DNA from: a virus
Direction: 5' to 3' (one strand)
Virus record (IMG/VR): IMGVR_UViG_3300020416_000002
Length of the DNA stretch: 64,000 nt
The notes under the pieces are model-generated. The model worked only from the letters and a program-made list of their open reading frames with translations. It was not told where the DNA came from and searched no databases. Each line of letters begins with the position of its first letter. The first letter of the stretch is position 1. The position numbers and the translations under genes are program-made. Positions 7,657 through 15,504 of this stretch are shown piece by piece.

Positions 7657-8847
7657 TTATTTAGTGACAGTAGAGATAGCAGGCAAACCTTGATTGAAAA
7701 TAGTATCAACAACTGCTTCAACTTTGCGAGCAGTGGATACACCTACATTAGAGTAAACTGGGACACATACGAGACCGAATACTTTAGTCTCATCACCTTT
7801 ACGAATAACTCTACCGATTGTTTGACTGATACCTATGTAATCCATAGAACGCAAAAACAATACTGCTTCAAGTCCATTGACATTGATACCTTCTGAGAGT
7901 ATGCTGTGATGGAGTACAACAAAACGAGTTTTGTCTTTACCCCATGCATTTAGTTGCTCAAAGAACTTGTCACGATTGACTTTTTTACCATTGATGATTG
8001 CACCAGTTTTTGCTGTGATGTACATCCAATTGTAACCACGCTGAGATAGTTCATAACAAAAATCAGTGTGAGTAACTAGATTTACAATTTGCTTAGTTGA
8101 CTTTGCACAAATGAGCACTTTATGCTTTTTGATGTTGTCAAGAGACTGCAGCATTTGCTCTGAATCTACATCAGCAACCAACTCATCTTTTTTGAGCAAA
8201 CGAGAGGTATAAACTTCTACCTTTGGTGGTAGAATGTAACCTTGATCTACAAGAAGAGGAGCGGGAACCTGACATATTACATTGCCATACACTGCTGTGT
8301 CATTCATACCTGCCTTGAAAGGTGTTCTAGAGTGTTTTGGAGTGGCAGTGAAGAAATAACAACGCTGAGCATTAGCAGCGAAATGCTCTGTAGCAGGGAA
8401 GAAGTTTTTTTGAACTGAGTTGTGTGCTTCATCAAAGTAAATAGTGTCAACATTTAGGTTAGCATCGACAACTCTACGCAAACTGTGATAAGTTGTGAAG
8501 ATGAAGCGATGGCATTGCATTTGGGAGCACATCACATCAAATAATGCGATCTGCTTTGCATTTGTTGTGCTGAAATGCTTAGTCTCACCACTGTGGATGT
8601 GTGCAGGCACGACATCAGGACGAGCAAAACCATCGAACTCTAGAAATTCCTCGCACAATTGCTGTGCAAGTAGAATACGAGGAGCAACAACAACAAATGT
8701 CAATGGATGAGTAGACTCATTCATTTTTGTAATTGCATCAGTGATCATGCATGCAGTCTTACCACCACCAGTAGGAATAATTACCTGACCTAAGTCATTG
8801 TTACTCATTGCATTGACTGCTTCAATTTGATGGGGACGAAGTTGCAT
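7657..8847 (-). CDS. SF2 DEAH helicase (ResIII-like)
   Basis: Q-motif LRPHQ, Walker A PTGGGKT, DEAH, TATP, LSEGINV, QTIGRVIR. Confidence 0.92.
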   Translation of the reverse strand: MQLRPHQIEAVNAMSNNDLGQVIIPTGGGKTACMITDAITKMNESTHPLTFVVVAPRILLAQQLCEEFLEFDGFARPDVVPAHIHSGETKHFSTTNAKQIALFDVMCSQMQCHRFIFTTYHSLRRVVDANLNVDTIYFDEAHNSVQKNFFPATEHFAANAQRCYFFTATPKHSRTPFKAGMNDTAVYGNVICQVPAPLLVDQGYILPPKVEVYTSRLLKKDELVADVDSEQMLQSLDNIKKHKVLICAKSTKQIVNLVTHTDFCYELSQRGYNWMYITAKTGAIINGKKVNRDKFFEQLNAWGKDKTRFVVLHHSILSEGINVNGLEAVLFLRSMDYIGISQTIGRVIRKGDETKVFGLVCVPVYSNVGVSTARKVEAVVDTIFNQGLPAISTVTK

Positions 8848-8879
8848 AAACCTTGATTGCTATACATGTATTATGACAT

Positions 8880-8905
8880 AAAAAAAGCACCCTGTAAAGG
8901 GTGCT
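8880..8905 (-). terminator. intrinsic terminator AGCACCCT-TTAC-AGGGTGCT-T-run; loop carries -35 TTTACA (17 nt to CATAAT 8870-8875)
   Basis: 8-bp stem plus U-tract. Confidence 0.75.
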
Positions 8906-8927
8906 GTGCCACTTCAAAGACTGTCTA
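8906..8927 (-). promoter_or_regulatory. early-promoter palindrome copy 8
   Basis: GTGCCACTT-CAAA-GACTGTCTA, 30-nt gap to CATAAT. Confidence 0.7.
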
Positions 8928-9082
8928 GAACAGGACTGCCCATACCCAAACAACAACAAGAGTATAAATCAGGAAGTTACGCTGTTCCTTGACAGACTCA
9001 CTCTTTTGAACGGCATCAAATAATTCTGCCTTAGTGTTCTTGAGTGATAGTTTCATAAAGCAAAGTATGTAAGTGTGAGATA

Positions 9083-9284
9083 AATGTGGTTAAGAGAGTG
9101 GGGCAATGATCTGGGTTTCACCCATGTTGCCCAAATTTACCCTATGGGAATCGCTTACACCTGTACCCCTACTGAACTAGCAAGTAATCATATAAGGAAT
9201 CTTAGTAGGATAACCCCACAATCCAAAATGATTGAACCCTTGCTATCGTTCGGGCATAGGAACCACATATCCCTTAACCACATT
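9083..9284 (-). ncRNA. ~200-nt structured non-coding RNA of unknown class
   Basis: 15-bp terminal helix AAUGUGGUUAAGGGA/UCUCUUAACCACAUU, several internal stems; predicted +1 of promoter copy 9 falls at the 5' end of the helix. Confidence 0.75.
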
Positions 9285-9288
9285 CTTA

Positions 9289-9480
9289 TTATAGCAAGTC
9301 CATGTCCTTACGCTGGTGACCTTGTGACACTTTATCAACTGTCTCCCACCAAGGGTGTTTCCACTCGGCACTAACTGGTTTCTCCCATGTGTCAGAATTA
9401 CTTTCTACCCACCTTTTTAGAGCGTAATATCTATCCTTCCATGTTTGTGCTTCCTCCTTTAAGATTTGCTCTGTGTTCAT
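9289..9480 (-). CDS. hypothetical protein
   Basis: ORF track; C-terminus is read through promoter copy 9. Confidence 0.5.
   Translation of the reverse strand: MNTEQILKEEAQTWKDRYYALKRWVESNSDTWEKPVSAEWKHPWWETVDKVSQGHQRKDMDLL
9324..9345 (-). promoter_or_regulatory. early-promoter palindrome copy 9; -10 TATAAT 9288-9293 (drives the ncRNA)
   Basis: GTGACACTT-TATC-AACTGTCTC, 30-nt gap. Confidence 0.8.
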
Positions 9481-9668
9481 AGTTGATCTGAGATTAAAAG
9501 TGATGGATTGCCAAGTTGAACTTCGATTTCATCGAAAATTCTTTCAAGAGTGTTTGACATATTATTGTAACCAGTTCCAACATAGATTTGACCCACTACC
9601 ACTGCAGCAGTGCAAATACCCCAGAACCTATAATATGCTGATGATTTGATTTGATTTTTTTTAGACAT
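9477..9668 (-). CDS. small single-TM hypothetical protein
   Basis: FWGICTAAVVVGQIYVG hydrophobic segment; GGAGG SD upstream. Confidence 0.7.
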   Translation of the reverse strand: MSKKNQIKSSAYYRFWGICTAAVVVGQIYVGTGYNNMSNTLERIFDEIEVQLGNPSLLISDQL

Positions 9669-14031: not shown

Positions 14032-14287
14032 ATGGAATTGATAATGGAACTACTTTCTCATTAAGAGAGATTTTTAAATCTTCCCACACATCAGGATCTT
14101 CAAAATTCTCTTCAACATTATCTATAAACCCTTTGAGATCCCTGATTAGTTTCCAACATTCATCTACCTCTAGTCTCTCTTCTGGTGATAGATCATTAAA
14201 TCTGCCCATACGAGCATAATAATCGTACTTAGCAGTTACATATTCTCTAATCTTGATAAAATCCTTAAAGGTTGCAGTTACTGCCAT
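14006..14287 (-). CDS. hypothetical protein
   Basis: ORF track; overlaps both neighbours. Confidence 0.6.
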   Translation of the reverse strand: MAVTATFKDFIKIREYVTAKYDYYARMGRFNDLSPEERLEVDECWKLIRDLKGFIDNVEENFEDPDVWEDLKISLNEKVVPLSIPYDGELPPD

Positions 14288-15441
14288 GATTTGATTACTG
14301 ATATATTCGCTCTACGAAACTCGTCATCAACTAGTTTTAGAGCATTGCCATTATATGATACCACATAACCCTCATGATGTGAAGGTGCATTGTTTACAAA
14401 TGTTTTGATATCAGAAACTTTGTTTAGTTGACTGATAAGCATTTTCTTAGCAAGACGAATAGACAGGTAAGATGCAACGGTAAAATAGATATCCATTTCA
14501 TATTTTACGATGAACGCAAGACCTTGACGCTTCATGTCAGTATACTTGTCTTTACCTTTTTGAGATTTTTTACTAGCAATCTCCTTGTCCATTGCATCAG
14601 AAAAGAACTTTGCAAAATCACTAGCAACAGTCTTTGTACTGATTAGTACCTTGCCTGCACGAACTTGCTGATTGAAGAACTGTTTGAATAGCGATGCCAT
14701 GACAAATCTAGACTGACCATACTGCTGAATGATGTCAAGAAACTTAGATGAACGCTTGAGAGATCCTTGTGCTCTGTTGATGATAGCAGTATACTTAGCA
14801 GAATCACGAACATCAAAATTAGATATACCTGAATAGTCAGAACTTGCTACCCATACATCATTGGTGCTCTCAATAACTGGAATAGTATTGTATACAGCAG
14901 TTGAATTAGCAATTGTATCACCCTTGTACACTGTATGAAATACAATACCTAACTGAGATACAATAACCTTGACACCTTTAGGTGTATTTGCCTTTACAGC
15001 ATATCTGAGAGCATTAGGTTGGAATGTAATATATTGCTGATTACCAATAGTGCCCCATGCTTTATCTGACTCAGTATAGAGCAAGTCACCTTGAACGATA
15101 CCTGTAATGTTAAGTTGTGGCAAATAAAGAAGACATGCCTTTAACTTAGAACTGAGTTCTGATACACCATAGAAATTATCAATATCATCATTTGTGTAGC
15201 AAACTTTAGGATTAGTTTTGTTGAATACTGATTTAGTACCAACAAAGAACTTACCATTGAGAGGGTCAGTGCCACATATGATAGCAGGAGCACCGTCCCA
15301 TTTAGTACTGATAGATAAATTACTGTTACGACCGCTCAACTTATTACCGAACTGCTTTAAGAAGTCAACAACCTCAAAACCACCAGCAGTGCCAGCGTTG
15401 AGGATATTATCTTCTAGATGCTCTAGGTGTGTGTTTTTCAT
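14278..15441 (-). CDS. conserved phage protein with ligase-type nucleotidyltransferase motifs (DUF6267-like, from memory)
   Basis: MKNTHLEHLED start; KWDG, QGDLLY, EGYVV, KLVD. Confidence 0.7.
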   Translation of the reverse strand: MKNTHLEHLEDNILNAGTAGGFEVVDFLKQFGNKLSGRNSNLSISTKWDGAPAIICGTDPLNGKFFVGTKSVFNKTNPKVCYTNDDIDNFYGVSELSSKLKACLLYLPQLNITGIVQGDLLYTESDKAWGTIGNQQYITFQPNALRYAVKANTPKGVKVIVSQLGIVFHTVYKGDTIANSTAVYNTIPVIESTNDVWVASSDYSGISNFDVRDSAKYTAIINRAQGSLKRSSKFLDIIQQYGQSRFVMASLFKQFFNQQVRAGKVLISTKTVASDFAKFFSDAMDKEIASKKSQKGKDKYTDMKRQGLAFIVKYEMDIYFTVASYLSIRLAKKMLISQLNKVSDIKTFVNNAPSHHEGYVVSYNGNALKLVDDEFRRANISVIKSWQ

Positions 15442-15482
15442 ACCCATATTATAGTCCATAACAGGGGGTTTGGGGGATTTAG

Positions 15483-15504
15483 TGGACAGTTTGACAGGTG
15501 TCAT
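15483..15504 (-). promoter_or_regulatory. early-promoter palindrome copy 11; -10 TATAAT 15448-15453
   Basis: TGGACAGTT-TGAC-AGGTGTCAT, 29-nt gap. Confidence 0.75.

Follow-up and report, generated by a model that had tools for sequence, protein, structure and literature searches.

An uncatalogued structured RNA with an arm for reusable hairpins in P-SSM2-like marine cyanomyoviruses

The stretch of DNA between the stop codon of a 63-codon ORF (9289-9480) and a 43-codon ORF (8925-9056), both on the minus strand, raises the question of whether the gap between the two genes encodes an RNA and, if so, of what kind. It lies in the 64,000 nucleotides of IMG/VR record IMGVR_UViG_3300020416_000002 analysed here (hereafter the window), where the genes near it are all on the minus strand. 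A sequence-only reading of the window had proposed that positions 9083-9284 of that strand encode an unannotated, multi-stem and possibly pseudoknotted RNA of ~200 nt with its own early promoter. Our results bear out an unannotated multi-stem RNA, conserved and without Rfam, tRNA or tmRNA match, and we conclude that this stretch is almost certainly an uncatalogued, autonomously folding RNA gene or 5' domain, carried in single copy by P-SSM2-like marine cyanomyoviruses.

The minus strand of the region folds with a minimum free energy of -68.9 kcal/mol, as compared to -53.75 +/- 4.15 kcal/mol for shuffled sequences (z = -3.65), and none of 200 shuffles folded as well. An inverted-repeat scan recovered every helix of the proposed fold at the minus-strand coordinates given for it, and that fold exceeds chance both by this z-score and by the covariation described below. 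The plus strand of the region folds about equally well, so that the strand is not decided by folding energy alone. The region is also richer in GC than its flanks, as had been noticed, but only modestly (0.44 vs about 0.34-0.42).

Searched against Rfam 15, the window gave no match on the RNA at the gathering score, nor did the segment 8850-9500 at E <= 10, and a minimal 117-nt copy of the RNA (locus L092) was likewise without an Rfam match. ARAGORN found neither tRNA nor tmRNA in the window. That the sequence-only reading had matched the RNA to none of the manA, wcaG, PhotoRC-II, glnA, tmRNA or RNase P RNAs is thus confirmed by Rfam and ARAGORN. In a blastn comparison of the region with phage records, matches were confined to the 3' ~90 nt (78-92.5% identity) and came from eight records: P-SSM2 (three records), P-SSM5, and four single-cell marine viruses. 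No feature is annotated beneath the match in the annotated records, and the four single-cell virus records are entirely unannotated. The P-SSM2 match sits inside the 367-nt gap between PSSM2_070 and PSSM2_071, and its flanks cannot be aligned, which indicates that the RNA is much better conserved than its surroundings. No paper printing the conserved sequence strings was found in the literature searched.

A pattern derived from two invariant strands of the RNA retrieved at least 119 marine viral contigs, and a second, independent pattern, anchored on the stems P5 and P6 alone, retrieved 36 additional contigs; the family therefore comprises at least 155 marine viral contigs plus the phages P-SSM2 and P-SSM5. 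Both junction strands vary by single bases only in the 36 contigs found through the independent anchor, and their near-invariance is thus not an artefact of the search pattern. The 27 short copies align cleanly, and RNAalifold assigned them 36 pairs, 21 with compensatory changes. A covariance model built from these 27 was used to align 101 copies, from which 100 distinct sequences were scored. In the window the model has a single match across all 64 kb, at 9084-9278 (cmsearch; 107 bits, E = 2e-32). Among the 100 distinct copies, 94.8% of pair cells hold standard pairs, as compared to 36.6-49.1% when partners are slid by 1-3 columns, and changes on both sides occur in 25 of the 36 pairs (475 cells). 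None of 500 shuffles reached any of five covariation measures. G-U exceeds A-C by 322:30 across the family pairs, which identifies the transcribed (minus) strand as the strand under selection. This family-level covariation backs all six helices, P1 to P6, and the selected features of the RNA are its fold and its junction nucleotides.

The conserved core is ~120 nt long, with about 50 near-invariant positions, and is built of two stacked three-way junctions joined by near-invariant strands. P1 and P2 lead to a three-way junction bearing P5/P6 and P3, and P3 leads to a second junction bearing P4 and a near-invariant 19-nt strand. From 5' to 3', the order is P1 (mostly 8-10 bp), a bulge of 3-4 nt, P2 (3 bp), UU, P3 (6-7 bp), P4, the 19-nt strand UUCAGGUGUAAGCGAUUCC (UACAGG... 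in the window), the 3' strand of P3, the invariant GUAAAUUU, P5 holding P6 with its tip GGUGAAACC, and the 3' strands of P2 and P1. The discrete unit of ~200 nt that had been proposed is accordingly replaced by a conserved unit of ~120 nt plus an insert of ~80 nt in P4, with no terminator immediately after the RNA in the window.

In the window, the whole structured RNA (9083-9284, minus strand, as are all features below) consists of the family core and the P4 insert. P1 pairs 9270-9284 with 9083-9097, giving 15 bp with one G-U in the inverted-repeat scan. The part shared with the family is 9270-9277, and 9278-9284 is an extension peculiar to the window; P1 has 8-10 bp in 66 of 89 copies and was counted as 16 bp in the window, and all seven of its modelled pairs are compensatory. 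A UAU bulge (9267-9269) precedes the 5' strand of P2 (GUG plus G, 9263-9266), which pairs with CAC at 9098-9100 and becomes ACG/CGU and GCG/CGC in other copies, two of its three pairs being compensatory. The extension of the closing helix by GUGG/CCAC thus stands as a pairing but not at its full 4 bp; it competes with GGGCAA/UUGCCC for one C, and P2 of the model has 3 bp.

The 5' strand of P3, U-CCUAUG (9255-9261), pairs with 9140-9146: CCUAUG at 9260-9255 with CAUAGG at 9146-9141, and U9261 with G9140. Its 3' strand and the following junction strand together span 9133-9146, CAUAGG (9141-9146) being followed by GUAAAUUU (9133-9140). Six of the seven pairs are compensatory, and the 6-bp helix occurs in 12 distinct, fully complementary versions (119 copies among the matches listed). 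The long-range pairing CCUAUG/CAUAGG of the sequence-only reading is therefore real and covarying, but it is an ordinary nested helix rather than a pseudoknot. A mutual-information scan for extra or crossed pairings returned only the nested helices and one pair extending P6, so that the possible pseudoknotting was not upheld. The alternative pairing GCCCGAA/UUUGGGC was not supported either, its GGGC belonging to P5 and covarying with its own partner.

P4 begins with CCC (9252-9254), which pairs with GGG at 9166-9168 (helix 4 of the alignment), and is followed by the near-invariant junction strand UACAGGUGUAAGCGAUUCC (9147-9165), invariant in the alignments. This strand may form a small hairpin, GGUGU/AUUCC, a candidate that is invariant in every copy. 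P5 (GGGCAA/UUGCCC, 9132-9127 with 9106-9101) encloses P6 within 9101-9132, and P6 itself is UGGGU-GAA-ACCCA (9112-9124) with the invariant tip GGUGAAACC. Compensatory changes were found in four of six pairs of P5 and in two of four pairs of P6, in addition to the covarying pair that extends P6. UGUAA and UGAAA do not have loop sizes suited to a T-loop or a boxB-like element, and these readings were dropped. In the 5' part of the window's RNA, AUGUGGUU is present twice (9261-9268 and 9276-9283), so that the 3' tail AACCACAU (9084-9091) can pair with either copy; the family lends no support to this alternative fold, which is peculiar to the window.

The P4 insert (9169-9251) makes up ~80 nt of the window's 200 nt and is a reusable hairpin module, AAUCAUUUUGGAU ... 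CCUUAUAUGAUUA. Its outer stems are GAAC/GUUC and UAGCAAG/CUUGCUA (9245-9239 with 9184-9178), the inverted-repeat scan adds AAUCAU/AUGAUU (9233-9228 with 9191-9186), and it holds a small hairpin, GUGGG-GUUAU-CCUAC (9205-9219). The same module sits in the P4 arm of nine distinct copies among the matches listed, with an inner segment of 5-82 nt; the outer stem covaries in two of the nine, and the inner stems are invariant. The small hairpin recurs elsewhere: one other copy has it directly in P4, and it also belongs to an unrelated RNA array lying 3 kb away from a core. Thus, the window RNA is a three-level nest of a small hairpin within a module within P4. The span of P4 ranges from 19 to 236 nt among the matches listed, and P4 is a permissive arm in which different phages bear different reusable hairpin modules.

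Other recurrent modules of related contigs are absent from the window. One of them lies directly 3' of the core at loci L018, L009, L015, L108 and others and resembles an H-type pseudoknot: its 5' strand (CAACCCC, AGUCCC, AAUCCC and so on) covaries with the loop strand of a hairpin, GGUAGUUUC ... GGAAACUACC, and a U-run often comes next.

With respect to transcription, an extended -10 element, TGCTATAAT (9288-9296, hexamer 9293-9288), can be read from the sequence 4 nt ahead of the closing helix, and the start predicted from it, about 9283-9280, falls within the first turns of that helix. The proposal of a promoter with its +1 at the closing helix is supported by this placement, which the window shares with about half of the family, but a sigma-70 consensus scan calls no promoter at 9288-9296 because there is no -35 element. 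A -10-like hexamer occupies the family-equivalent position in 51 of 100 unique copies, as compared to 0-1 per position elsewhere, and in 48 of 89 copies in a second count; in about half of the copies the box ends 6-8 nt before P1, and the remaining half are preceded by another RNA module or a gene end. About 30 nt before the -10 box of the window lies the motif GACAGTT-GATA-AAGTGTCAC (9324-9343), which fits a family motif, ACTG[G/T]CAC, that precedes the -10 box by a constant spacing in 27 of 100 copies (e.g. L022, L048 and L112). This motif may serve as an operator or determine the specificity of these early promoters. It is often half of a ~22-bp palindrome, as in L022, where it reads TGTGCCAGT-N6-ACTGGCACA.

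Similarity between copies breaks precisely at both ends of P1, with flanks that differ on either side and that, apart from U-runs, are unrelated and unstructured. A U-run follows P1 directly in 25 of 89 copies, and 11 of 89 have both the promoter and the U-run. In about 12% of copies the RNA is followed by a promoter belonging to the next gene, and many copies have an ORF start 10-35 nt beyond P1 without an intervening promoter. In the window, the next terminator is an intrinsic hairpin with a U7 tail at 8886-8905, after the 43-codon ORF, and a transcript beginning with the RNA would probably run on through that ORF and end there. At 8870-8905, this terminator overlaps a promoter, TTTACA-17-CATAAT, ahead of the helicase gene, forming a composite like the PeSLs discussed below.

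The 43-codon ORF starts 27 nt after the RNA and encodes a product with a hydrophobic C-terminus. It is an ORFan, with no homologue in about 130 related loci and no homology to PSSM2_071; it probably shares a transcript with the RNA and lies outside the conserved element. A search for constant neighbours, in which 2,724 ORFs from 126 loci were clustered, found no protein gene constantly adjoining the RNA. The recurrent neighbours are all co-oriented with the RNA: N6A methyltransferase, a 144-aa protein, DUF7717, a ResIII/DEAD helicase (gene 7657-8847 of the window), DUF6267, 2OG-Fe(II) oxygenase, a glycine-zipper protein and ORFans. The first downstream genes fall into more than 10 mutually unrelated clusters, including DUF7717, the helicase, DUF6267 and ORFans. 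At about 16 loci (e.g. L010, L031, L099, L104 and L118) the core ends in a U-run followed directly by TGTTATAAT and a DUF6267 gene, whose product in this sub-family has a KxDG motif (ligase-like); the DUF6267 gene of the window (14278-15504) is about 5 kb from the RNA.

ORFs of 96 codons (9084-9374, plus strand) and 31 codons (9188-9283, minus strand) overlap the region, which could in principle make it a protein-coding stretch, or else an origin or repeat acting at the DNA level, with no RNA. Such a reading can hardly be right, considering that an antisense ORF of at least 50 codons is kept in just 35 of 126 loci, that the 31-codon ORF is lost in other copies with a stop after about seven codons, that insert lengths range over 19-236 nt, that stem changes are compensatory with the G-U excess given above, and that there are no tandem repeats.

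The complete genomes of P-SSM2 and P-SSM5 contain one copy of the RNA each, as do five contigs of 79-113 kb. Only one contig among the matches listed, L021, has two core copies (1213-1337 and 2122-2258), about 800 nt apart, one minimal and the other with the P4 module of the window.

Several known RNAs offer points of comparison. GOLLD and ROOL are large, ornate, phage-associated RNAs whose function is not known. Like them, the window RNA is phage-borne and highly structured, with invariant junctions and optional modules; unlike them, it is far smaller, specific to cyanophages, not beside tRNA genes, and without an Rfam match. 6S RNA (RF00013) is a long rod, for the most part double-stranded, that opens into a large central bubble. 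The window RNA is likewise small, stable-looking and closed by a terminal helix, but its consensus is branched, with two three-way junctions and neither rod nor central bubble, and it does not match the model, so that the 6S-like polymerase decoy suggested earlier was not sustained. ToxI-like type III antitoxins consist of tandem ~36-nt repeats beside an endoRNase toxin gene. An antitoxin of this type, which had also been suggested, finds no counterpart here, as there are no tandem repeats in 8800-9600 and no recurring neighbouring nuclease gene.

The closest parallels in setting come from cyanophages and T4-type phages. The orphan structured RNAs manA (RF01745) and wcaG (RF01761), found by covariation in non-coding gaps, mainly in marine cyanomyovirus DNA and viromes, have no known function (Weinberg et al. 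2010, PMC2864571). The window RNA is also a covarying orphan RNA in a non-coding gap of a marine cyanomyovirus. In contrast to manA and wcaG, with which it shares no sequence or structure match, it has two stacked three-way junctions, lies at transcript starts before unrelated genes, and has one arm whose conserved modules can be swapped. PeSLs, known from T4-type phages, each combine a promoter with a hairpin in a short unit that recurs many times in a genome (Arbiol et al. 2010, PMC2839356; Comeau et al. 2014, PMC4122927). Like a PeSL, the window RNA lies in a hyperplastic early region and has an early-type promoter and sharp, recombination-like borders; unlike a PeSL, it is a ~120-nt multi-junction fold with one copy per genome. 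The single copy in each of the window, P-SSM2, P-SSM5 and the five large contigs speaks against a PeSL cassette, and the two PeSL papers do not cover this RNA.

As to function, we tentatively favour the reading that the RNA acts through a partner that binds it, serving as a decoy or scaffold early in infection. The active entity would be the folded core, acting neither by base-pairing to a target nor through a peptide. A macromolecular partner, which may be a host or phage protein or complex, would recognise a specific surface made up of the invariant junction nucleotides, and hairpins plugged into P4 or strung alongside would add further binding sites. Transcription is predicted to begin in the first base pairs of P1, from the extended -10 promoter, and the base-paired 5' end would shield the RNA from 5'-end-dependent RNases. 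The autonomy of the element, its single copy, the conserved cargo hairpins that it tolerates, and its occurrence in both stand-alone and leader contexts favour a bound RNA over a cis-acting switch of one gene. Against it, no constantly adjacent protein gene presents itself as the partner, and so many invariant junction nucleotides are equally typical of riboswitch aptamers and ribozymes. Moreover, the many copies in which an ORF starts shortly after P1, with no promoter between, would suit a cis-acting leader, and the promoter plus U-run layout of a discrete small RNA is confined to the 11 of 89 copies mentioned above.

A leader of that kind could be a riboswitch-type sensor, in which the two-junction core would be an aptamer that senses the state of the host through a small molecule or ion, with closure of P1 gating termination or ribosome access. 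The covarying stems around invariant junction strands do resemble a conserved aptamer core, the element is at the 5' end of transcripts, the U-runs mean that P1 could act as a terminator stem, and in some copies an ORF start follows P1 at 10-35 nt. We nevertheless consider a classical single-pathway riboswitch rather unlikely. The downstream genes are mutually unrelated, where a riboswitch would be expected to precede functionally related ones; conservation halts exactly at the end of P1 and, the U-runs aside, no recurring expression platform is seen; P4 holds conserved, reusable modules rather than arbitrary stem extensions; some copies precede the next gene's own promoter, e.g. TGTTATAAT before DUF6267; and stand-alone use is seen beside use as a leader. 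The promoter-proximal position would also suit processive antitermination of the HK022 put or Bacillus EAR type, in which the nascent RNA would bind its own polymerase so that early-region terminators are read through. Put and EAR are antitermination RNAs, EAR being similar in size to the present family, and the window RNA resembles them as a promoter-proximal folded RNA in an early operon with terminators; it is also present once per genome and is followed in the window by a terminator and then a long row of co-oriented genes. Unlike a relative of put or EAR, however, the family has no homology to put or EAR and no similarity to any catalogued element, about half of its copies are not promoter-adjacent, and some themselves end in a U-run, which together make antitermination improbable.

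The two remaining alternatives concern the fate of the early transcript. Small ribozymes are common in phage intergenic regions, and a conserved core with variable peripheral stems, bordered by the ends of P1, might be a self-cleaving ribozyme of a new class, or a dedicated processing signal for an RNase, through which the transcript is cut at the edge of the cassette. As judged from the sequence, however, this is about as improbable as antitermination: Rfam models of hammerhead, twister, twister-sister, pistol, hatchet, HDV-like and glmS ribozymes gave no match, the near-invariant positions far exceed the needs of a small ribozyme, and copies that begin at the transcription start have no upstream RNA to remove. 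Stem-loops at the 5' end are known to make bacterial mRNA more stable, and with a start predicted no more than about 2 nt from P1 in about half of the copies, the element could be a mere stabiliser whose base-paired 5' end guards the transcript from RNase E or RNase J. This is very unlikely, since a simple hairpin would suffice; the invariant junctions and the copies inside transcripts would be unexplained, and neither a general stabiliser nor a repeated PeSL-type cassette would be expected to occur just once per genome.

A wider proposal, possible though we regard it with considerable doubt, is that the core represents a new RNA class, either a ribozyme or riboswitch or an RNA-only counter-defence decoy, for which P4 would be a plug-in socket in each case. 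Constraint at the level seen here is usually found in ribozymes, riboswitches or RNP cores, and yet this RNA, with about 50 near-invariant nucleotides in a covarying scaffold, is absent from Rfam. If the proposal is true, phages would assemble multivalent early RNAs from reusable hairpin 'cargo' modules, nested within or chained to one another, and the socket-like arm with its reusable hairpins would be a natural example of modular RNA design. The minimal form of ~120 nt is small enough for direct biochemistry and structure determination, and P-SSM2 with Prochlorococcus NATL1A provides a cultured system in which to study the RNA.

The distribution of the family is narrow. With P-SSM2 and P-SSM5 as positive controls, no match was found at E <= 10 in P-SSM4, Syn9, P-HM1, S-SM2 or P-TIM68. 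A host origin was rejected, as 185,579 prokaryotic species genomes (one per species) yielded a single match, on a phage-like contig of 1.9 kb. This contig (L128, CAZRCY010000231.1) is binned into a Poseidoniales (archaeal) MAG and is probably a mis-binned phage fragment; in it, the core is followed by a DUF6267 gene of the cyanophage type.
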